From IMG/VR virus record IMGVR_UViG_2721755676_000006: 36,332 bases of DNA; one strand, given 5' to 3'. The DNA comes from a virus (lineage: Duplodnaviria > Heunggongvirae > Uroviricota > Caudoviricetes). The translations under genes and the position numbers were made by a program. Numbering within the stretch: the stretch's first letter is position 1; each line of letters starts with the position of its first letter. The notes under the pieces are model-generated. The model had not been told where the DNA came from and did no database searches. It saw only the letters and a program-made list of their open reading frames with translations. Shown in pieces: positions 935-34,884 of this stretch.

Positions 935-2620
935 GTGAATATAAACGTCGCCGAATTGTTAAATGGGAATTACATTCTGTTATTATTTGTGGTCCTCGCG
1001 CTTGGGCTATGTCTCGGAAAGTTACGACTTGGTTCGATCCAACTGGGTAATTCCATTGGCGTTTTAGTCGTATCGCTGTTATTAGGCCAACAACATTTCA
1101 GCATTAACACCGATGCGCTTAATCTTGGCTTTATGCTGTTTATTTTCTGCGTCGGGGTCGAAGCCGGACCGAACTTTTTTTCCATTTTTTTTCGCGATGG
1201 GAAAAATTACCTAATGTTAGCACTGGTGATGGTTGGCAGTGCGCTGGTGATCGCCTTAGGGTTAGGTAAGCTGTTTGGCTGGGATATTGGCCTGACGGCC
1301 GGTATGTTAGCAGGCTCTATGACGTCGACACCGGTTCTGGTCGGTGCTGGCGATACACTGCGTCATTCCGGCATGGAAAGCAGGCAGCTCTCACTGGCAC
1401 TGGATAATCTGAGCCTCGGGTATGCCTTAACCTATTTAATCGGTCTGGTGAGTTTGATTGTTGGTGCGCGTTACTTGCCGAAATTGCAGCATCAGGACTT
1501 ACAGACCAGCGCCCAGCAAATCGCCCGCGAACGTGGCCTGGACACTGATGCCAACCGTAAGGTTTATTTACCGGTGATCCGCGCCTATCGCGTCGGCCCG
1601 GAGCTGGTGGCCTGGACCGACGGCAAAAATCTGCGTGAACTGGGTATTTATCGACAAACCGGCTGCTACATTGAACGTATTCGACGTAACGGGATTCTGG
1701 CAAATCCAGACGGTGATGCCGTGCTACAAATGGGCGATGAAATAGCGTTGGTAGGCTATCCCGACGCCCATGCCCGACTCGATCCCAGCTTCCGTAACGG
1801 TAAAGAAGTTTTCGATCGTGACCTTCTCGACATGCGTATCGTCACTGAAGAAGTGGTCGTTAAAAACCATAACGCTGTAGGTAAACGTCTCGCACAACTG
1901 AAGTTGACCGATCACGGTTGCTTCCTTAACCGCGTCATTCGTAGCCAGATTGAGATGCCGATAGATGACAACGTCGTGCTTAACAAAGGTGACGTTTTAC
2001 AAGTCAGCGGTGATGCCCGTCGCGTAAAAACCATCGCCGATCGCATCGGCTTTATCTCGATTCACAGCCAGGTCACTGACCTGCTGGCATTTTGCGCCTT
2101 CTTTGTTATTGGGCTGATGATCGGGATGATCACCTTCCAGTTCAGCACATTCAGTTTCGGCATGGGGAACGCTGCCGGGTTGTTATTCGCCGGAATTATG
2201 CTGGGCTTTATGCGTGCTAACCACCCGACCTTCGGTTACATTCCGCAAGGTGCATTAAGCATGGTGAAAGAGTTCGGCTTGATGGTGTTTATGGCAGGCG
2301 TTGGTCTGAGCGCCGGTAGCGGTATTAATAACGGCCTGGGCGCGATTGGCGGTCAGATGTTGATTGCCGGATTAATTGTCAGTCTTGTGCCCGTGGTTAT
2401 CTGTTTCTTGTTCGGTGCTTATGTATTGCGAATGAACCGCGCACTGTTGTTCGGCGCAATGATGGGCGCACGCACCTGCGCGCCGGCAATGGAGATCATC
2501 AGTGATACAGCTCGCAGTAACATCCCTGCGCTGGGCTACGCGGGCACCTACGCAATCGCCAACGTCCTGCTGACGCTGGCAGGGACAATCATCGTCATGG
2601 TATGGCCAGGATTAGGATAA
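935..2620 (+). CDS. ybjL: putative AAE-family transporter YbjL (two membrane domains flanking TrkA-C-like soluble domains; GTG start)
   Basis: 561-aa ORF with hydrophobic N- and C-terminal halves and a central soluble region; chromosomal context. Confidence 0.85.
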
Positions 2621-3164: not shown

Positions 3165-4265
3165 TCATTCCATTTCGAAATCATCAATCCTCACTTCAAG
3201 CTCCAGACTGGTCGTAAAACCGTTATCCGGGCTGACGGTATGCGTCAGAGTCGTAATGGTCCATTCCGCATCATCTATCGGCTGTTTAAAACCACTGACC
3301 TTCACAGGCATTTCCGTGTAGAGATCTGCCCGCCCTTCTGCCAGTTGTAGCGAAAATGACGCAACGCCGCGTTGCAGGCGTTCCCACTGCATTTTCGCCG
3401 CTCGTTCGGCGTTGCTCCGGTTGGCATAAGTGCGATTAAGTACCAGCACGTTTTCATCCGTACCCACCAGGTAATCGCCCTGCTTCGCTTCTGGCTCTTT
3501 CTTCTGCTTCTTAGTTCTGCGCTTACGCTTCACCGTGGTGCTTTCTTTCTTCGCAGGTTCGCGGGTATGCAACCAGCTGGCAATTACGCCCGTGTAGGCT
3601 CCGCGATCTGCCAGGGTAAATCGGTGACTGTCGCCGTCCTTGCGTGTGATAGTGATCACTGGCAGAGGTTTACCAGTGGCGCTTTTGCCCTGCCCCTGCC
3701 GGATGAATAACAGATTGCCATTTTTCACCGACGCGATGGCACCGTACTGTCGCGCCAGCCGCATCAGAAAACTGCCGTCACTCTCATTAGTCTGGTCTAT
3801 ATGCTCCACGGGCTTATCCGACAGGTCTTTACCCAGTGCCATCTTCAGCTTGTGCCGCGCGGCTATTTCCTTCACCACTTCCCCGACGGTGGTCTTATGC
3901 CACGATTTTTCACGGCGGGTATTCAGCGTTTCCCGAAAATCAGCACTTCGCGCCCGGATAGTCAGGCGGTCCGGTGCGCCAGTGTGTTCAATCTCGTCCA
4001 CCGTGAATGTCCCTTTCGGGAAAAGCGGCTGCCCCTTCCAGCCCAGCGCCAGCGTAATGACCGCACCACGGCGCGGCAGCACGATTTTTCCGTCGGCGTC
4101 GTCCAGCTCCAGATCAAGCTGGTCCGCGTCAAAGCCCCGATTGTCCGTCAACGTCAGACTCATCAGACGGTTATCCAGCACAGTAGTGATATCCCTGCCC
4201 TCAATACTGATGCTGAATGCGGGAGTTTTGTTGCCTTTGTTAAGCAGTTCAGAGCTGAAATTCAC
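3165..4265 (-). CDS. D: tail protein D (late control gene D family); GTG start with GGGAGGG RBS
   Basis: 366-aa ORF with P2 gpD-like blocks (RLMSLTLTDNRGF, WKG, FLMRLARQYGA); position between ogr and U. Confidence 0.85.
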   Translation of the reverse strand: MNFSSELLNKGNKTPAFSISIEGRDITTVLDNRLMSLTLTDNRGFDADQLDLELDDADGKIVLPRRGAVITLALGWKGQPLFPKGTFTVDEIEHTGAPDRLTIRARSADFRETLNTRREKSWHKTTVGEVVKEIAARHKLKMALGKDLSDKPVEHIDQTNESDGSFLMRLARQYGAIASVKNGNLLFIRQGQGKSATGKPLPVITITRKDGDSHRFTLADRGAYTGVIASWLHTREPAKKESTTVKRKRRTKKQKKEPEAKQGDYLVGTDENVLVLNRTYANRSNAERAAKMQWERLQRGVASFSLQLAEGRADLYTEMPVKVSGFKQPIDDAEWTITTLTHTVSPDNGFTTSLELEVRIDDFEME

Positions 4266-8829: not shown

Positions 8830-10002
8830 TTACGCGCTGACCTGGCTGGCAAAATTCACCAGGTACTGATCGGTGATGCGCTGGCGCAGCATCAGATTTT
8901 CAAGTGGCGGCACTGGCGTGTAGTCATAGTCGATGGTGAGTTTTCCGGCTTTCAGCGTGTCTTTGTCGTTCACCGACTCATCCAGCCAGCAATCACCACC
9001 AATGAGATAGCCTTGACTGACCAGGCTGCGCATTTTGGCGCGGATACCTTCGATAATGTCGCGGGCCAGCGACGGGTTAAGCGGTTTATCCACCGCCCAC
9101 ATGTGTGCTTCTGCCATCGTGTCCATCAGCACCTGCGCCGTGCGGGTGTAGTTTTCGAAGGCAAAGAGCGGGTCATCACTCAGGCAGCGGGAACCCCAGA
9201 AGCGGAAACCGTCTTTACGCACAAGTGTGGTGACGTCGTTCTGGTTCAGCAGACCTGCATCGGTTGCCGGGTCCTGCAGATCCCAGAACACATCTGCAGA
9301 AATTCCGGTGACACCGTTCACGCCCACGTTGGACAGGCTTTTGTGCCATCCGGTCTGCTCGTCAATTTTGGCGCGCAGACCAAGCGCACGGGCGGTGGCA
9401 TATGCCGTTGCTTCGGCATTCAGCACCGTGTCCCAGCCAGTAAAGTCAGGCCAGATCAGCATCCCTTCGCGCTGGCTGAAGTTTTCACGGTAAGTGATCG
9501 CCTCCTGTACCGTCTTGCAGCCATACGCTGACAGGTAAGCAAATCCACGCAGGCTTTGCGCCACGCTCAGCAACTCAGTAGCTACCGCCTTGGTGTCGTG
9601 GCCTGGCACGCCGAGAATGCGCGGTTTAACGCCGAGCTGAGCCTGTGCAGATAACAGGGCTTTCATACCTGTTTTTTTACCTTCAGCAGTCACTGCGCCG
9701 ATGATATTGGTCGTGGTTTCGTCTTCCGTTTCACCCTGCGGCACACGCACAACAACGGTCACGGGTTTTGCCTGGTCAGCGATGGCATCCAGCGAACGAG
9801 CCAGCGTGCCTGACTCACCCGCTTTACCGCTGGCAGTCAGCACATCAGTGATCAGCACGGGTTTATTAAGAGGAAACATTTTTGCATCGGCATCATCGCC
9901 CGTGCAGACCATACCCACGATGGCGGTGCTCACCGTGGTAATGGATCGGGTGCCTTCGTTGACTTCAACAACGCGCACCCCGTGGTGGTAATCCTGAGCC
10001 AT
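8830..10002 (-). CDS. FI: contractile tail sheath protein
   Basis: 390-aa ORF, P2 FI-like; ATG at 10002 preceded by AGGAGG. Confidence 0.9.
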
Positions 10003-10077
10003 AGTGGCGAACCTCCTGATTGGATTAGGCTTCGCCCTATGTTGAAGTGATTGTGCCTGACAAACAGCTAAGCGCAG

Positions 10078-10097
10078 TTGTACCGTTATTCACACAA
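10078..10097. promoter_or_regulatory. candidate Ogr-dependent late promoter element (TTGT-N12-ACAA dyad) for the FI-FII-E-T-U-D operon
   Basis: TTGTACCGTTATTCACACAA read directly, about 80 bp upstream of the FI start; the same dyad recurs upstream of V and O. Confidence 0.4.
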
Positions 10098-10144
10098 AAT
10101 GACGGTATTTGTCTGCTTGCAGGGATAATCAAAATTATGCTGAT

Positions 10145-10711
10145 TCAGGGGGATTCATTGCTCTTATTTGCCGGAAATTTTCTATAAATGGTAGAAACGC
10201 CTACATCAAAAATCAGTGCAATACGCTGTCTTGATTCTCCGGCCTCGAGTAAACGTCCAATCTGTGCCCACTGTTCAGTGGTCAACTTAGGACGGCGTCC
10301 ACCTACTCTGCCTTTGGCACGAGCTGCAGCCAGCCCTGCCCTGGTACGTTCAACTATCAGTTCGCGTTCCATTTCAGCCAGGGCCCCCATGACATGAAAA
10401 AAGAAACGGCCCATTGGGGTGCTGGTATCAATACTGTCAGTCAGGCTTCGGAAATTCACGCCACGCTGACGCAACTCTTCTATCAGCGTAACAAGATGCC
10501 GCATACTGCGCCCCAACCTGTCTAGCTTCCAGACAACCAGCGTGTCTCCTGCCGATAGTGTCCTGAGCAGTTTTTTCAGCCCCGGTCTGTCGGACTTAGT
10601 GCCACTGATTTTATCCTCAAAAATCCGCTCACATCCCGCGCAGTTCAGTGCATTACGTTGCAAATCGGTGTTCTGGTCATTTGTTGACACGCGTACATAG
10701 CCAATAAGCAT
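10145..10711 (-). CDS. serine DNA invertase (Hin/Gin/Pin/Cin family)
   Basis: 188-aa ORF with N-terminal resolvase catalytic motif (YVRVSTNDQ), C-terminal HTH (GVSTIYRKF); adjacent to the tail-fibre genes. Confidence 0.9.
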   Translation of the reverse strand: MLIGYVRVSTNDQNTDLQRNALNCAGCERIFEDKISGTKSDRPGLKKLLRTLSAGDTLVVWKLDRLGRSMRHLVTLIEELRQRGVNFRSLTDSIDTSTPMGRFFFHVMGALAEMERELIVERTRAGLAAARAKGRVGGRRPKLTTEQWAQIGRLLEAGESRQRIALIFDVGVSTIYRKFPANKSNESP

Positions 10712-24670: not shown

Positions 24671-24697
24671 ATGACACAAAAGTGTCATTTTATTTTA
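24671..24697. terminator. bidirectional hairpin ATGACAC-AAAA-GTGTCAT with flanking T-tract
   Basis: 7-bp inverted repeat between convergent Q and the AT-rich cargo operon; stop codon of the 174-aa ORF lies inside it. Confidence 0.4.
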
Positions 24698-25209
24698 TCA
24701 AGAGGCTTTACCCATTTCTCATGCAAATCCTCTAGCTTAAATGTATTATTTTTTGTCAACCATTTATGAACCAAAGCTATAATTTCTGACCTAGAATAAC
24801 GCTTATAATACAGTTCAGGATTTGCATTATATTGCTCTACTATATGTTGTCCAACTATTGCAAGTTGTCGATGGTCAATAGCGACTAAATCCCTATGCAT
24901 AGGATTTACAGCTTCAAACTTACTTTGCCCCGGATTGTTAGCTATCTGAACACCATTTTCTCTAAGCCAGTCCTCATCCAACCAAATAAGATCAATGATA
25001 TCAGGCGAGGACATAGTTGTAGCTAATGCAACAACGATTTTCTCGGCATCCTCTGTGGTAAAGTCAATTGAATCTGAAGCCCAAACAGAAAGAGTATTAT
25101 TCTTTGTTCGTGTACACCCAGTAATAGCATCGCCTGAAAAATTATCAGGCTGCAATGTTAAGTTAGGTTCCCATTTTGCAATTGATATTTTTCTTAACAA
25201 ATAACTCAT
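24685..25209 (-). CDS. hypothetical protein, third gene of AT-rich cargo operon
   Basis: 174-aa ORF; ATG overlaps the upstream stop (ATGA coupling); no recognisable motif. Confidence 0.6.
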   Translation of the reverse strand: MSYLLRKISIAKWEPNLTLQPDNFSGDAITGCTRTKNNTLSVWASDSIDFTTEDAEKIVVALATTMSSPDIIDLIWLDEDWLRENGVQIANNPGQSKFEAVNPMHRDLVAIDHRQLAIVGQHIVEQYNANPELYYKRYSRSEIIALVHKWLTKNNTFKLEDLHEKWVKPLDKIK

Positions 25210-25865
25210 TGCATGCGTCCCAAATAGTCTATGACAGATTTTTTATAATTATCCAACCAACTTATTCCAAAATCTCTTATTCCATTTAGATATAGTGCAA
25301 GTTGTGGATTGCCCCATCCTTCTGCCGCACGCAGAGCTGCTTCATTTACATATTTATCATCATAAACCGATGCAGCCAATATGATAGCATCAGCCTTATC
25401 ACCAAGAATTTCATATTCTAAGCAAGATGCAACACATATGAAATTTCGTAATTCATACGTATTTTTATTGCGAAAGAGGTCTAACCAAACCCGTTGAAAA
25501 ACCTCCCTAAAAACAAATGGATTTTCTTTGTAAAGGCCTTCAAGATAAAGTTGAGTCTTAGTGATTTCACCTTCAACATAATCTTCTGAAAATAGTAAAC
25601 TTATAGTCATTTTTTGTTTTTTAATGACTATGCTTTCAAAAGAATTATTTGAATCATCAATTTTTTTCAAAAAAAACGAGCCAGCTTGAACTGCTGTTTT
25701 ATTTGAATTTATTCTAATATCGTTAGCTACATAAGAGGATAATTTTTTTGAGTTATCAGATACTGATGAGTTAACCAAAAAACGGTCAAAGTTATTATCA
25801 TTAATAATAGTGTTAACTTCTGACGAAGCCTCAGACAAAATTATATTTCCATAATTTTTATCCAT
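25206..25865 (-). CDS. hypothetical protein, second gene of AT-rich cargo operon
   Basis: 219 aa from ATG at 25865 with GTGAGG RBS (track start 25904 trimmed); Asn/Ser-rich N-terminus, no recognisable motif. Confidence 0.55.
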   Translation of the reverse strand: MDKNYGNIILSEASSEVNTIINDNNFDRFLVNSSVSDNSKKLSSYVANDIRINSNKTAVQAGSFFLKKIDDSNNSFESIVIKKQKMTISLLFSEDYVEGEITKTQLYLEGLYKENPFVFREVFQRVWLDLFRNKNTYELRNFICVASCLEYEILGDKADAIILAASVYDDKYVNEAALRAAEGWGNPQLALYLNGIRDFGISWLDNYKKSVIDYLGRMQ

Positions 25866-25872
25866 GGCAGCC

Positions 25873-26568
25873 TCACTTATTCGTATAACGAGATAATTGC
25901 TCAATTAAATTGGCATTATTTTCTTGCAACTCACTAACAATAGAGTTCGCAGAATTAAAATCAAACCGAAGCGAATTATTTTCTGCCAATGTATTTGTAT
26001 CCACCTCAAAGTTTATTACTTCTGTTGGATGATTATTATTTACTAATGGAGTCTGAATGAAACAACGACGAACAGTACTCCCACTATTCACACTCTCATT
26101 TAAATTTTTCAAATTGACTCGCTCAACAATACGATTATCCCATTCAAATGGTTCTGCATTACGATGAGTGAATAGCTCTCTGTAAAGCCTGGAGTAATTA
26201 TCCTGACTATCATGATAAAAATATGAATTAATAACTGACAGTCTTGTCGCTTTTTTATTAGGGAATATTGACTGTAAAGACTTCATAATATCTTTAACTT
26301 TATTTATGAACTCTTCACTGGAACCGCCGACTCCATGAAAGACAATAGCCCCCAAGGGAAATTCAACCCGAAAATTTTGGTCAGGCGAAGTCATAATAAC
26401 TATTTGACGCTTTTCCCCTGTTAAAGCATTCAACTCCTGCCCAAACATGGGTAAAAGGGATAACGCAGCCAAATTAGACAACAGCATCGAAAGCACTGGC
26501 GGTGTAGCAGTGACATCAGAATTGTTTGTAAAATATGATGCTTGGTAATTTTGAAATAATAATTCCAT
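25873..26568 (-). CDS. hypothetical protein, first gene of AT-rich cargo operon
   Basis: 231-aa ORF with strong AGGAGGA RBS; soluble, no recognisable catalytic motif. Confidence 0.6.
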   Translation of the reverse strand: MELLFQNYQASYFTNNSDVTATPPVLSMLLSNLAALSLLPMFGQELNALTGEKRQIVIMTSPDQNFRVEFPLGAIVFHGVGGSSEEFINKVKDIMKSLQSIFPNKKATRLSVINSYFYHDSQDNYSRLYRELFTHRNAEPFEWDNRIVERVNLKNLNESVNSGSTVRRCFIQTPLVNNNHPTEVINFEVDTNTLAENNSLRFDFNSANSIVSELQENNANLIEQLSRYTNK

Positions 26569-27013: not shown

Positions 27014-27595
27014 ATGAAAGTCAACATAAAACAGATTGTTGGAAATTGGGAATTAGGTCTTGCGATGGATAAACACAGCATCCGCAGCATTCCCATTGGT
27101 TACGATGAGTGGGGACATATGCGGTTTGAGACGGAGCGTACTGAGGTAGGCGAATCTCTTTTCCAGCTTAAATACCGTGACGATTGGTCACAAGTTAAGC
27201 CTTTAGCCCAATGCCTAGCAGAGCATGCCTTTCCTCATTTCAGCAATGTCGGGTTTATCGTTCCAATGGCTGCATCTAATCAGCGTGCACGCCAGCCAGT
27301 GACCGAAATAGCTCAGGAACTAGCCAAACTAGTTGGCAAACCATGCTTCGATGACCTCTTGTTGAAAGCCCCCGGCGGGGCATCGCTAAAGAACCTGAAT
27401 ACAAAAGAAGAGAAAATCACGGCGCTGGGTAATTCGTTCTCTGTTAATGACAGTATTGAGAATAATGGCAACTGGAATGTCCTTATCATTGACGACCTCT
27501 ACCATACAGGCGCATCTATGGAGGCTGCTTGTGCTGTGCTAAACGATTATACTAAGGTTAGAAGCATTTATGTTGCAGCTTTGACTTGGAGATAG
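27014..27595 (+). CDS. phosphoribosyltransferase (PRTase)-like protein
   Basis: 193-aa ORF with PRPP-binding-loop-like motif VLIIDDLYHTGASM near the C-terminus; AT-rich. Confidence 0.55.
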   Translation: MKVNIKQIVGNWELGLAMDKHSIRSIPIGYDEWGHMRFETERTEVGESLFQLKYRDDWSQVKPLAQCLAEHAFPHFSNVGFIVPMAASNQRARQPVTEIAQELAKLVGKPCFDDLLLKAPGGASLKNLNTKEEKITALGNSFSVNDSIENNGNWNVLIIDDLYHTGASMEAACAVLNDYTKVRSIYVAALTWR

Positions 27596-27597
27596 TG

Positions 27598-28155
27598 ATG
27601 ACTACGGTATTTGTTGCTGGTTCAATAACCATCAAAAACCTTGACACACTCATCGTGGATCGTCTGAAAAAAATTGTTAACTCGCGTTTTCGTATTGTAG
27701 TTGGTGATGCCAATGGTGTTGATTCATCTGTTCAACGCGTATTGCTAGAACTTGGATGTGAAAAAGCCACAGTATTCAGTAGCTCAGAAAAACCGCGCAA
27801 TAATCTTGGCTCATGGCCTGTACATGTAGTAAGTACTAGCCATGCAGCCGGCACTCGCGCGTTTTTCACTGCGAAAGATCTCAAAATGGCAGAAGAAGCC
27901 GATTATGGATTAATGGTTTGGGATACGAAGAGCACGGGTACTCTGAGTAACGTGATTGAGCTTCTTAAACGTAAAAAATACTCTGTCGTTTTTGTTAATA
28001 AATACAAAAAGTTCTTTATTATCAAATCTCCAGAGCACCTTGACGCTTTGATTAACTGCATGTCACCAGCCTCTTTGGAAAAAGCTGATGAAAAGATCAG
28101 ATTGCGCGAAAAAATCAACCAACTAAAAAACGAGCAAATCCAGATGTTTATGTGA
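27598..28155 (+). CDS. DprA/SLOG-like Rossmann-fold protein
   Basis: 185 aa from ATG at 27598 with GGAG RBS; motif RIVVGDANGVDSSVQRVLLELG resembles the DprA/LOG glycine-rich nucleotide-binding loop. Confidence 0.4.
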   Translation: MTTVFVAGSITIKNLDTLIVDRLKKIVNSRFRIVVGDANGVDSSVQRVLLELGCEKATVFSSSEKPRNNLGSWPVHVVSTSHAAGTRAFFTAKDLKMAEEADYGLMVWDTKSTGTLSNVIELLKRKKYSVVFVNKYKKFFIIKSPEHLDALINCMSPASLEKADEKIRLREKINQLKNEQIQMFM

Positions 28156-28244
28156 AATTCTTTGATGATAACACTAACGCCTCGCCCTGCTCGTTGTTCA
28201 ACCTTGCTGGCTTCAGAATCAAGTACTGATGCCAGCAACGTTTC

Positions 28245-28478
28245 TTAATGCAGCCAGCTGTCGTCTTCCCACACCTTCTGCATAATTTTCATCACTTGTT
28301 TTCTTTCTTCGTCCAGTTGCAGTCCGGTCAGTTCCACACCGTTAGAGCTACCTTTTCGGATACGAATTACCGTTTTGGGATACAGGGGGCGCAGATTGCG
28401 GTAAAGCTCGGATTCAAGGGCGTCCAGGGTAGACTGGCTAATCTTCTGCTCTTTATCGATCATTATTTCAATGCGCAT
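28245..28478 (-). CDS. dinI: DinI-family protein
   Basis: 77 aa from ATG at 28478 with GAGGTGA RBS (MRIEIMIDK...VWEDDSWLH); size and acidic C-terminus as in DinI. Confidence 0.65.
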   Translation of the reverse strand: MRIEIMIDKEQKISQSTLDALESELYRNLRPLYPKTVIRIRKGSSNGVELTGLQLDEERKQVMKIMQKVWEDDSWLH

Positions 28479-28488
28479 AAAAGTCACC

Positions 28489-28677
28489 TCAACTGATGAC
28501 ATCCATTGAGCGGTTGTATTCGTGAGTTCTGATTTTTGCCATGAGTTCATCAGTCAATTCAGAAACCCACTGCAGGGCCAGCCCCTTCTCTTCATCACTA
28601 CACTCACTAGCCGCTACAAGCTTAAGAAAAAAATCAATGCGCTGGAGCTTCAAAGACTCCAAAAAATAGTCCTGCAT
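28489..28677 (-). CDS. small hypothetical protein (possible Tum-like antirepressor N-terminal module)
   Basis: 62-aa ORF directly downstream of a LexA box and upstream of the DinI-like ORF, in a different frame. Confidence 0.4.
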   Translation of the reverse strand: MQDYFLESLKLQRIDFFLKLVAASECSDEEKGLALQWVSELTDELMAKIRTHEYNRSMDVIS

Positions 28678-28719
28678 CTTTCCTCCTATGACACCAAAGC
28701 AATACTGTATACATAACCA

Positions 28720-28735
28720 CTGTTTATATTTACAG
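28720..28735. promoter_or_regulatory. LexA operator (SOS box)
   Basis: CTGTTTATATTTACAG, a perfect CTGT-N8-ACAG box; a weaker half-site overlaps at 28705-28720. Confidence 0.7.
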
Positions 28736-28829
28736 TATATAATAATCTTACTGATGTAAAACGTTTTTTTACGCTCATCAGCCTGATATGCCTGGTATTA
28801 TTAAGAGCACGAATTGTTAACCCGCGTAA

Positions 28830-31250
28830 TTAATACAGGTTTCGCCACTTATCATCTTCCTGCAAACGCTGGTTCCGATAGAAGATACGCAGGCCTGCTC
28901 CTGACGGAATACTGCCTCCGCGAAGCAGTAAATCGACCTCTTTCTCGCTGCCATCAAATCCCCTGGACTTCAGTTCATACACGAGCTGCAGTCGCTGATG
29001 GTCTGTAATTCGCTGTTTGTAGTCTTTACGCCGTTTCGGTTTCACCAGGCGTAACCTTGCTGCCAGTTCCCGGCGCTCTTTTTTGCTCATACTGTGCAGG
29101 TAATCGTGCAACTCCTTGTCATCCATGCGGGTGATATCCGTTCTGGTATCTCCATCAGCTGATTTGTCTTTCCCTTGTTGGTACAAATTTTCAGCAAGGG
29201 GACAGTTATTGCCACGAGTCCGAGTCCAAGGGGCGCAAGCGCCCTGGTCGGCTGCCGCCTCCTGAACGTCAACGGCTTTACGAACCATTTTCCACTTCAC
29301 TGCATGAGTGCAGATCTTGCCCTCTGCAATGGGTGACCAGATGCCATAAATACGAATGCCGTGATCGCCATAGGCGGTCGGCTCTTCGTTGATTTCATAA
29401 GCGGTTCTGATGAGGTGATATTTACGGGGAACCAGTACGCCGCCCTGCTTCATGATGTAGGTGGCAAAACAACCAGCATCAGCAGCAGCCAGAATGGCAT
29501 CAAGACGCGGGTTATCCAGTACCGGCGCACCTGCTTTTTTGTCACCCTGTTGCCTTGCCGCCTGACCAGCCAGCAAGCGAAGTTCACGGTAAGCCTGACG
29601 CCCCGGAATACCAAAGAAGCGGAATTGCTGAACACGATGCAGAGACGCCCAGGCATTCACGTATTCAGCGTTATCACGCAGAGATTTACCCGTTTCCTTG
29701 CTGATCTCGCCAGCCAGACCACGACCGTCAATGTTCTTACTGATATATTTCGCGATGTAGCTTGTCGGCGTTCCTTTGCGCGGGTTAATCAACTCAGACT
29801 TAAAGCGCGGCCCAGTGTTATTGCCCAGCTCCTCGCGGTCTTCACGGATGGCAAACTTACGCAGTAATGCAGTGATGGCACGGCGGTCTTTTTTGCGCAT
29901 GAAACACAACAGGTGCCAGTGAACTGTGCCATCATGATGCGGCTCAGCCACCCGCACGCCATACCAGCGCAACCCGGCTTTGTGCATCGCCTTACGAAAT
30001 GCAGCAAACATGCCGACCAGATAATCGCTGCTTTGTCTTACCGTCGCGTTTGTCCAGGTCGGGTTTGGTCTGCCGTTATTTAGCGTGGAATGGAAACGCG
30101 ACGGACAGGTGATAGTGTAGAAAACGGCGCAGTCACCGCGCATTTCCGCGATAAGCTCCAGACCTTTAACACAGGCCATCATCTCATTGCGGCGATGCGC
30201 AGGGTTGCTGCTGCTGGCGTTTACCACATCCTCCATGTCCAGCGTGTCGCCGTCTTCGTTCACCAGTTCATGAGAACGGAAAAACTCCAGCGACTTACGG
30301 CGCTGCTCACGTTTATGCATCACGGCTTCATAGCTGACATAAGGAGATGCTTTTTTGCTGACCAGGCAAACAGCGCGCAACTGCTCTTCCCGCCATTCGC
30401 AACGCATCTTCCATAATTTCCGGTACCACCAGTCGGCGCACAACATACGCGCCAGCGAACCCGGAATGAGTTTATAGGGCACGGGTTTACGGCGGTTTCT
30501 TTTCCGACGGAGTTGCTCAAACGCAGGTGGGATGACATCCAGACGCAGGGTTTCCGCTGCCACCTTTTCCCATGTCTTGCGGATTTCTTCTGGCTTAACG
30601 TCATCGGTGGCATACAAATCACCACAAGCTGCATCAAGGCACATACTCATATGCGCAGCTACCAGGGTGGACAGGCGTTTCACCTGATCCTGACTCATTT
30701 CAGGCAGGATCAGCAGGCCGTCCAGCCCTTCATGGCTTGCCATAAAGCGAAAAGATGCAGATAGCTGACTGTCGCGTACATGCTCCAGTCGTTCCAGACA
30801 TGGCTTAATCGTCTCACGTAAATAGCGGGAATAAGCCTTTGGCCTGCCCAGGCTGCTGAAGTATTCAATACGTTGCATCAGCGGCTTGCTGATATGGGAA
30901 GGCTGGGCGTTGACGTCCGCCAGAATGACCATGTCTGAATTAAAACGCTGCTGCTCATGCGCCAGCTTTGCCCGGCTAATGAGCTTATCCTGCTCCATTT
31001 CGCGCTGGACAGGATCACGTGATTCATTAAAGAAATAACGCTCCCAGACCTGATCACTCAGTGCCTCGCGGCGCAACTGTTCCTGCTCGTTATCGGCAGC
31101 GTACAGAGTGATCAGGTTTGAAAGCGTAGAAACCGGCGCAACTTCCGCCGGGTCCAGATAAGGGTTAATGGCCTTTTTCGGGCTGTTCCATGAGAATGCT
31201 GCAGCAGCCTCGTTAAAGCCGCAGCAGTTGTTCATATCGGCATGACTCAT
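28830..31250 (-). CDS. A: replication initiation endonuclease A (rolling-circle initiator)
   Basis: 806-aa ORF with HUH-type motifs (..[13 protein letters not shown].. and ..[12 protein letters not shown]..). Confidence 0.9.
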
Positions 31251-34287: not shown

Positions 34288-34314
34288 CGAATTTTGGATT
34301 TCTTTGGAGGACTT

Positions 34315-34884
34315 GTGGATTTCAATAGCGGCGGTAAGAAAGCCATAGAACGTTTAGTTGAAGCATATGGGTTCGGTACCCGTCAGGCTCTATGTGATCA
34401 TTTAGGTGTTTCTAAGAGCACCATGGCAACGCGCTATATGCGTGATATTTTTCCAGCAGATTGGGTAATCCAGTGCGCCCTTGAAACGGGCACCTCGCTT
34501 AATTGGCTAACAACAGGGCATGGTTCAAAGCAAGCATCAGCAAATACAAATACTATAGAAGTAGAAAAATATTTATTGTCTGATGGAGCATTGCAGAAAG
34601 ACGGTTTTTATATTTTTGATAAGGGATTTCTACCCTCTACGTTTAAAAAACCTTTTGTCATCACAGATAACAATTCTGAATTTATTTGTGATAAAGAATT
34701 TGATGATATACGTGATGGTAAATGGGTAATAAGTATTGATGGCGAAATAACGATCCGTGACATTACTCGTTTACCCGGTGGAAGAATCTTCGTCGAGGGT
34801 GGAAACAGAGCCTTCGAATGCAAGATAGAAGACATTGAAATAATTGGTAAAATTATAAGTTTAACAGTCAAGTATGTTAAATAG
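34315..34884 (+). CDS. cI: CI-like immunity repressor (186 type)
   Basis: GTG at 34315 preceded by GGAGG (track start 34294 is TTG); N-terminal HTH (..RQALCDHLGVSKSTMATRYMR..) plus C-terminal domain; about 190 aa. Confidence 0.65.
   Translation: MDFNSGGKKAIERLVEAYGFGTRQALCDHLGVSKSTMATRYMRDIFPADWVIQCALETGTSLNWLTTGHGSKQASANTNTIEVEKYLLSDGALQKDGFYIFDKGFLPSTFKKPFVITDNNSEFICDKEFDDIRDGKWVISIDGEITIRDITRLPGGRIFVEGGNRAFECKIEDIEIIGKIISLTVKYVK

Follow-up and report, generated by a model that had tools for sequence, protein, structure and literature searches.

A LexA-Boxed tumA–tumB Locus, a Probable Two-Cistron Counterpart of Phage 186 tum, in a Fels-2/186-like Prophage of Escherichia coli

The element contained in the analyzed stretch of DNA (36,332 nt; hereafter, the window) is an E. 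coli prophage of the Fels-2/186-like (Peduoviridae) kind, inserted beside ybjL, and its minus strand carries a locus that is very probably an SOS-induction module, namely, a LexA-repressed tumA–tumB operon in which TumA acts as an antirepressor against the CI repressor and TumB is an accessory protein. Comparison with related phages supports the reading of this locus as a split version of the tum gene of phage 186, with two cistrons corresponding to the two parts of one polypeptide. The split arrangement is already known, and the window adds another case of a module that has been described and validated by genetics. By analogy with its relatives, the locus would mark the prophage as a DNA-damage-inducible one of the Fels-2/186 type and not as a non-inducible one of the P2 type.

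Organization of the Locus and Known Relatives

The SOS locus was found on the minus strand, where it immediately follows replication gene A (28830–31250, minus strand; Pfam Phage_GPA, 2.5e-127). Its first gene, tumA (28489–28677, minus strand), encodes a putative antirepressor of 62 aa and is preceded by the Shine–Dalgarno sequence AGGAGG (28682–28687, minus strand), which is part of primer NHR28 in PMC12055606. The second gene, tumB (28245–28478, minus strand), encodes a DinI-family protein of 77 aa, and its own Shine–Dalgarno sequence, GAGGTG (28485–28490, minus strand), overlaps the tumA stop codon. The gap between the two ORFs is 10 nt, and the ATG codon of tumA is 199 nt away from that of tumB, so that the genes are in different frames; the preliminary description, according to which the DinI-like ORF lies in a different frame and has its own ribosome-binding site, was thus borne out.

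Two predicted hairpins flank the operon. The first (28750–28782, minus strand; RNA fold −12.3 kcal/mol, z −3.1) follows the end of gene A and leads into the tumA promoter, overlapping its −35 hexamer, and it probably terminates transcription or insulates the operon against read-through from the early operon; analogous palindromes precede the LexA boxes of Gifsy prophages (Lemire 2011, PMC3121763). The second, a strong hairpin at 28200–28242 (on the minus strand, −23.0 kcal/mol with z −5.5; on the plus strand, −19.8 kcal/mol with z −4.5), lies between tumB (minus) and a convergent cargo gene (plus) and is likely a bidirectional terminator closing the SOS operon; a T-rich tail was present solely on the plus strand. 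The cargo downstream of tumB consists of convergent Shosta/PsyrTA-like ORFs. The prophage also encodes an integrase, a CII-like gene (PHROG CII-like activator) and a 186-type CI repressor of 196 aa (34294–34884, plus strand; phrog_4 repressor; 33% identity to 186 CI), which is the presumed target of TumA.

The gene order of the locus matched that of the 186, PSP3, Fels-2 and E. coli HS records. In phage 186, Tum is one fused polypeptide of 146 aa expressed from promoter p95; the gene occupies the same genomic position as the locus in the window, has a single LexA box and is followed in the operon by orf97. In the Salmonella phage PSP3, as in the window, gene A is followed by a LexA box, a tumA gene of ~60 aa and a DinI-like tumB gene of 77 aa; in PSP3, both genes share one frame, with a stop codon between them, and have a single LexA box. 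The PSP3 record (NC_005340) gives "similar to 5' end 186 tum; UV induction of prophage" for tumA and describes the second gene, tumB, as "similar to dinI and 3' end of 186 tum". The prophage Fels-2 of Salmonella LT2 carries STM2728, which encodes a TumA 98.4% identical to that of the window, and STM2726.1, its DinI-like partner, with a double LexA box present and a co-directional ORF of 243 aa after tumB. The 2002 study of Bunny and colleagues reportedly traced the death of lexA null mutants of Salmonella LT2 to the tum homologue of Fels-2. In both Fels-2 and PSP3, tum is split in two, with the antirepressor activity in the upstream gene (Lemire 2011, PMC3121763), and the Fels-2 tum homologue was discussed by Bunny, Liu and Roth (2002), as far as this is relayed in Lemire 2011 (PMC3121763). 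A literature search for TumA and TumB as whole words returned unrelated papers only.

A more distant parallel is offered by the Gifsy prophages 1, 2 and 3, in which a LexA-repressed operon encodes a DinI homologue together with a small antirepressor (GfoA/GftA) directed against a non-cleavable repressor (PMC3121763); these operons, however, have the reversed order, with dinI first, and belong to lambdoid prophages, whose repressor is of another family. The elements of a Tum-type module that can be read from sequence were found together in the window: a position after gene A, a 186-type CI, a LexA site overlapping the −10 hexamer (read from the sequence), homology to the N-terminal part of Tum and a DinI module.

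Promoter and LexA Operator

The perfect SOS box reported in the preliminary description upstream of the 62-aa ORF was confirmed: CTGTTTATATTTACAG at 28720–28735 (CTGTAAATATAAACAG on the minus strand; LexA box 1) is the sole CTGT-N8-ACAG motif in the window. It should be noted that a motif of this kind is not rare by chance, with 0.48 occurrences expected and at least one found in 38 of 100 shuffled sequences. The 20-nt LexA consensus TACTGTATATATATACAGTA was matched at 28718–28737 with three mismatches, whereas none of the 100 shuffles contained a match with three or fewer mismatches. Related loci were represented by a set of 33 genome loci from different species and three reference loci; among the 35 with sufficient upstream sequence, a CTG-N10-CAG LexA box was present upstream of tumA in 34.

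At sequence level, the promoter reads TTTACA-17-TACTGT, with the −35 hexamer at 28755–28760 and the −10 hexamer at 28732–28737 (both on the minus strand), the latter located within the 20-nt LexA site, which covers the −10 hexamer and the likely transcription start. Promoter p95 of phage 186, to which this promoter is equivalent, is annotated as LexA-controlled with TTCACA-18-TACTGT; the −10 hexamers are the same, and the geometry of the overlap between LexA site and −10 hexamer is alike. The tumA promoter was recognized by this comparison; a scan for sigma-70 consensus promoters did not flag it because TACTGT is a weak −10 hexamer. Hexamers resembling TTTACA or TTCACA, read by eye, occurred at a similar spacing in most of the related loci.

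A putative second LexA box, GTGGTTATGTATACAG (28705–28720, minus strand; GTG-N10-CAG), is an addition to the preliminary description. It has one base in common with box 1, and one of its half-sites is GTG rather than CTG. Colicin-type double SOS operators, in which the boxes overlap by 1–2 bases and lie over or downstream of the −10 hexamer, are characterized by tight repression and late induction. Boxes 1 and 2 have this arrangement and, judged by their sequence, form a colicin-type double operator. Over 36 nt, this operator (ACTGTAAATATAAACAGTGGTTATGTATACAGTATT) could be aligned almost base for base with regions upstream of the colicin N and pesticin genes of small plasmids, although those operators drive bacteriocins, whereas the one in the window drives a prophage antirepressor, and the promoter and leader sequences around the operators show no relationship. 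Double boxes were found in 23 of the 35 Fels-2-type loci, a single box in 11 and none in one; among the 81 loci with a fused Tum of the 186 type, 80 had a single box and none had a double one.

Genetic Evidence from the Related Prophage DuoHS

The most direct evidence for the function of the module comes from DuoHS, a P2-like prophage of E. coli HS, in which neither the markerless Δtum mutant nor the lexA(Ind−) strain gave lysis or virions after mitomycin C treatment (the Phollow study, Nat Microbiol 2025, PMC12055606). The primers of that study, NHR24 and NHR28, fuse ATAGGAGGAAAGATG to TGAGGTGACTTTTATGCGCATTG, by which the start codon of the 62-aa ORF is joined to its stop codon, and the two halves have exact matches in the window at 28675–28689 and 28469–28491. 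The gene deleted as tum in DuoHS is, consequently, this 62-aa ORF, and the design of the primers spares tumB and its ribosome-binding site. Since the deletion removes the 62-aa ORF alone and induction is lost, induction requires tumA in DuoHS; it also requires a cleavable LexA.

The two prophages are close relatives. TumA of DuoHS (ECHS_RS04495) is 98% identical to that of the window, differing in one residue (T51S), and its DinI-like neighbor is ECHS_RS04500. The promoter, the double LexA box, the tumA–tumB spacing and the integration site on the ybjL side are alike, with ybjL being 100% identical, and across the promoter–tumA–tumB segment, the DNA identity between the window, HS and Fels-2 is ~97%. 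The CI repressors have 87% identity, the differences (13% of positions) lying mostly in the N-terminal half. The cargo after tumB in DuoHS consists of two co-directional hypothetical ORFs, in contrast to the convergent ORFs of the window. SOS inducibility has been shown for this near-identical allele and may be carried over to the window prophage by likeness; the experiments proposed in the preliminary description, such as mitomycin C induction of the lysogen, have in effect been performed on the sister prophage, with the predicted outcome.

Against this background, it is improbable that the operon is a moron that benefits the host or modulates the SOS response, for example, by tuning RecA, in a prophage as non-inducible as P2. 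Such a role would fit the weak UV inducibility reportedly found in Bunny's 2002 study for the LT2 prophages, including Fels-2, as well as the tight repression implied by a double LexA box and the fact that none of the CIs studied by experiment is identical to that of the window. Against it, mitomycin C induction of DuoHS needs the near-identical module, a linked 186-type CI gene accompanies tumA in every case, and the repressor encoded in the window is of this type and not a P2 C repressor. The earlier expectation that the prophage would be SOS-inducible, unlike P2, is in agreement with the presence of both a 186 CI-like repressor and a LexA-boxed tumA; the features of a P2-type element, a short C-type repressor and the lack of a LexA-controlled antirepressor, were not found.

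TumA and the N-Terminal Part of 186 Tum

TumA was assigned to phrog_698 (E-value = 3.6e-38), whereas searches with its sequence in Pfam, NCBIfam, PADLOC and PDB gave no match. BLASTP of the 62-aa ORF revealed no match to 186 Tum and none to PSP3 TumA; BLASTP of PSP3 TumA against 186 Tum failed as well, which indicates that pairwise comparison is too weak for such short modules. Comparison of profiles depended on their depth: a shallow TumA profile (at least 81% identity) gave an hhalign probability of 31% against Tum, whereas a profile of 51 sequences, built with diverse members from a search of representative proteins, gave 96.3% (E-value = 1.6e-9) against a profile of the 186 Tum N-terminus. 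The two profiles aligned colinearly (columns 3–44 to 3–44), and the controls yielded 0.1% for the reversed profile and no more than 1.2% for 30 column shuffles. The common core can be written approximately as E-x4-[LI]-[EQ]-R-[IV]-x-hydrophobic stretch-C-x3-[DE]-[KR]-x-[LI]-A-[LI]-x-W/L-[IV]-[AS]-E-[LI]. PSP3 TumA represents a very divergent subfamily (hhalign 12% against the family of the window and 77% against 186 Tum).

According to the AlphaFold2 model (pLDDT 90), TumA is a hairpin of two helices (residues 2–23 and 28–61), with the conserved cysteine at the turn. A Foldseek search of PDB with this model returned generic helical hairpins alone (best E-value 0.9). Taken together, the profile comparison supports the homology of the 62-aa ORF to the N-terminal antirepressor part of 186 Tum, of which it would correspond to the first ~45 residues, and the designation of the locus as Tum-like in the preliminary description gains support from this relationship as well as from the similarity of the downstream ORF to the C-terminal part of the same protein.

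The DinI-Family Protein TumB

The DinI-like ORF as called mechanically spans 28245–28550 (101 aa), with the Pfam DinI domain (PF06183) over residues 38–100 (E-value = 1.3e-22). The domain was matched over profile positions 1–63 of 63 with a score of 80.4 bits, well above the family cut-off of 24.2. The start of tumB was placed at the ATG at 28478, which gives a protein of 77 aa, as in the homologues from PSP3, Fels-2 and E. coli HS; by this comparison, the 101-aa ORF is an over-extension of tumB. TumB had 41% identity to residues 71–145 of 186 Tum and 78% identity to PSP3 TumB. Its score with the NCBIfam equivalog model for chromosomal DinI (NF007893) was 42.7 bits, below the cut-off of 111; on this basis, TumB is classified as a phage paralogue and not as an orthologue of host dinI.

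Several lines of evidence point to TumB as a probable accessory modulator of the SOS response or RecA. In the record of phage 186, tum has an annotated internal start that gives the DinI part alone and "modulates SOS induction"; tumB directly follows tumA in 19 of the 35 related loci and is absent or was not detected intact in the other 16, which keep tumA and the LexA box; the TumB score lies under the cut-off for host DinI; and deletion of the dinI homologues of Gifsy phages left induction unchanged (Lemire 2011, PMC3121763). The same data bear on the reading in which TumB is itself the inducer, for example, through RecA-dependent inactivation of CI, and the 62-aa ORF is a leader or regulator. 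This would agree with the presence of a recognized domain in TumB only and with database annotation, in which TumB is named and TumA is left as hypothetical. It is nevertheless very improbable, since the Δtum mutant (PMC12055606) keeps tumB with its ribosome-binding site and still loses induction, since nearly half of the related loci retain tumA and the LexA box with no intact tumB detected, and since the upstream gene of PSP3 is the antirepressor, while the Gifsy dinI homologues can be deleted without effect (Lemire 2011, PMC3121763).

Distribution of the Two-Gene Arrangement

The order of replication endonuclease, hypothetical protein and DinI-like protein was found in 67 phage records, with the two-ORF layout in at least 56, and recurred in 1124 of the 5426 complete E. 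coli genomes. TumA homologues formed ~484 protein clusters across Enterobacterales; the called length is 62 aa in many of them, and the longer calls match with upstream extensions. When 1.84 billion representative proteins were searched with the TumA profile, 87 clusters were found, essentially all of them short and standalone, and no genuine TumA–DinI fusion was detected among these representatives in the TumA subfamily. Three long matches that had appeared to be fusions (P0288, P0261 and P0275) were rejected, as they comprise a false positive with HEAT repeats and chimerically called ORFs. The frame of tumB relative to that of tumA was 0, 1 and 2 in five, seven and seven loci, respectively, which leaves no conserved frameshift logic; a programmed frameshift joining TumA to TumB was ruled out on these grounds.

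In approximately one-fifth of complete E. coli genomes, tumA is labeled as a "hypothetical protein" or, wrongly, as a "levan regulatory protein". The practical value of the present analysis lies in annotation, as a function can be transferred with confidence to a very common unnamed gene.

Of the two possibilities left by the preliminary description, that the parts of the antirepressor are separate or that they are frameshifted, the former held and the latter did not. That the two ORFs are what is left of one fused tum gene after a frameshift or sequencing error, the locus being a pseudogene or depending on programmed frameshifting for full-length Tum, is the least probable of the explanations and is refuted as far as the comparative data go: the different frames, the short gap between the ORFs, the tumB frame remaining open for 24 more codons upstream and the fusion in phage 186 would speak for it, but the two-ORF layout recurs in the records, genomes and clusters listed above with no genuine fusion and in all three frame relations, tumB has its own Shine–Dalgarno sequence and is missing or was not detected intact in 16 of 35 loci, and in-frame deletion of the 62-aa ORF alone ends induction in DuoHS (PMC12055606). 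The "possibly altered antirepressor architecture" noted earlier is the one already known for tumA/tumB in PSP3 and Fels-2.

Proposed Operation of the Module

In terms of the SOS-induction module, LexA in a healthy lysogen would occupy the double operator over the −10 hexamer and transcription start of the sigma-70 promoter and keep the operon silent. After DNA damage, RecA would become active, LexA would cleave itself, and the two-gene operon would be transcribed. TumA, as a helical hairpin of 62 residues, would then bind the 186-type CI, which would lose its hold on the lytic promoter, and lytic growth would follow. TumB, translated separately, would probably modulate RecA filaments and the timing of the SOS response and be dispensable for the switch. 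We infer the occupancy of both boxes by LexA, the direct binding of TumA to CI and the role of TumB. Direct Tum–CI binding was reportedly established in the 1998 work of Shearwin for the fused 186 Tum, a distant relative. The choice of CI as the presumed target of TumA follows, by analogy, the biochemistry of this protein. According to the summary given in PMC3121763, 186 Tum binds CI directly and reversibly and blocks its binding to the operator (Shearwin 1998).

Relationship between TumA and CI

Comparative analysis of TumA and CI across 378 locus pairs revealed no covariation of their identities (Spearman −0.06). The window and Fels-2 have TumA proteins that are 98% identical and CI repressors with only 39% identity, and identical TumA proteins were found beside CIs only 35–41% identical, an observation that is unexpected under tight TumA–CI antagonism. 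On a coarser scale, TumA type and CI were paired, as no CI cluster (70% identity) was common to the Fels-2-type and 186-type loci. The N-terminal domain of CI had 55–100% identity within the Fels-2 clade and 31–54% identity between this clade and the 186 clade, whereas the C-terminal domain had median identities of 32% within the Fels-2 clade and 29% between clades.

This pattern in the sequences suggests that TumA may recognize the conserved N-terminal domain of CI, be promiscuous within the clade and thereby be able to cross-induce heteroimmune relatives. In its stronger form, in which Fels-2-type TumA is a broad-specificity antirepressor that inactivates the CIs of at least 13 immunity clusters through their N-terminal DNA-binding domain, the proposal is tentative and somewhat doubtful. 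If it is true, heteroimmune Fels-2-like prophages residing in one cell would be co-induced, and, owing to the double LexA operator of the colicin type, the decision would fall late in the SOS response, at high levels of damage.

The double LexA operator, the frequent absence of tumB and the near-invariant TumA beside such dissimilar CIs seem to be less documented than the split arrangement itself. The double operator, the dispensability of tumB and the non-covariation of TumA and CI could seed a study of the evolution of antirepressor specificity and induction timing in P2-like prophages. One locus of the set, from Pantoea stewartii (L028), combined a CI of the 186 clade with a Fels-2-type TumA and is an exception that breaks the pairing pattern.

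Association of TumA with the Repressor Type

The TumA protein, homologous to the N-terminal part of the Tum antirepressor of phage 186, was compared with the CI repressors encoded by loci L007–L039 and L042, by Fels-2 (L004/L006) and by the window (CI at 34294–34884, + strand), with CI clusters set apart at an identity of less than 70%. Near-invariant TumA was accompanied by at least 13 CI clusters across these loci, and CIs with an identity of only 35–41% occurred beside identical TumA alleles. The type of Tum was tracked only by the N-terminal domain of CI. Only one locus, L028 of Pantoea stewartii ATCC 8199, broke the correspondence between Tum type and CI clade; there, both TumA (84% identity; tumA at 10001–10186) and the backbone were of the Fels-2 type, while CI (approximately 3204–3725) belonged to the 186 clade (60% identity to 186 CI).

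No model of TumA (28489–28677, − strand) was found in Pfam, NCBIfam or PADLOC. The protein is labeled as a "hypothetical protein" in RefSeq and as a "levan regulatory (domain) protein" in some phage and UniRef records, and no basis for the latter name was found in the present analysis.

Operator and Downstream Region of tumA

The tumA operator is predicted from its sequence to be a double LexA box of the colicin type (box 2 at 28705–28720, − strand), and the operators upstream of the colicin N and pesticin genes were nearly identical to it (L040, 1501–1543; L041, 1201–1242). The double box was found in 23 of the 35 Fels-2-type loci, whereas it was detected in none of the 81 loci of the 186 type with fused Tum; it is a typical feature of the former and is absent in the latter.

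No match to tumB, the DinI-family gene located 3′ of tumA in the window, was found in loci L012, L016, L022, L026, L030–L037 and L039, all of which, except for L037, kept tumA together with a LexA box. In L016, L026 and L039, the terminator-like GC hairpin, which follows tumB in the window, came directly after tumA. In L037 (Siccibacter turicensis), a decayed copy of tumA with a missing N-terminus (10045–10179) was present; no LexA box was found at this copy, and the replication gene A upstream of it was represented only by a fragment.

Neighboring ORFs and the Attachment Site

Two overlapping ORFs of 193 and 189 aa (27014–28155, + strand) are convergent with tumB. The 193-aa product had a phosphoribosyltransferase-like (PRTase-like) C-terminus and matched ShosT (1.3 × 10−8) and PsyrT (1.5 × 10−7) in PADLOC, while the 189-aa product had no match in Pfam, PADLOC or NCBIfam. 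Judging by sequence, the pair looks like a Shosta/PsyrTA-like toxin–antitoxin or defence cassette within a variable cargo region of the prophage. Three successive ORFs of 174, 232 and 231 aa (24685–26568, − strand), located between the portal gene and this cassette, had matches solely in phrog_10743, 21208 and 19817, three PHROG families without an assigned function, and gave no match in NCBIfam and defence-system searches.

The ybjL gene of the window (935–2620, + strand) encoded a product 100% identical to YbjL of E. coli HS, and the window prophage is integrated at the ybjL-side attachment site that is also used by DuoHS, the near-identical prophage of that strain.
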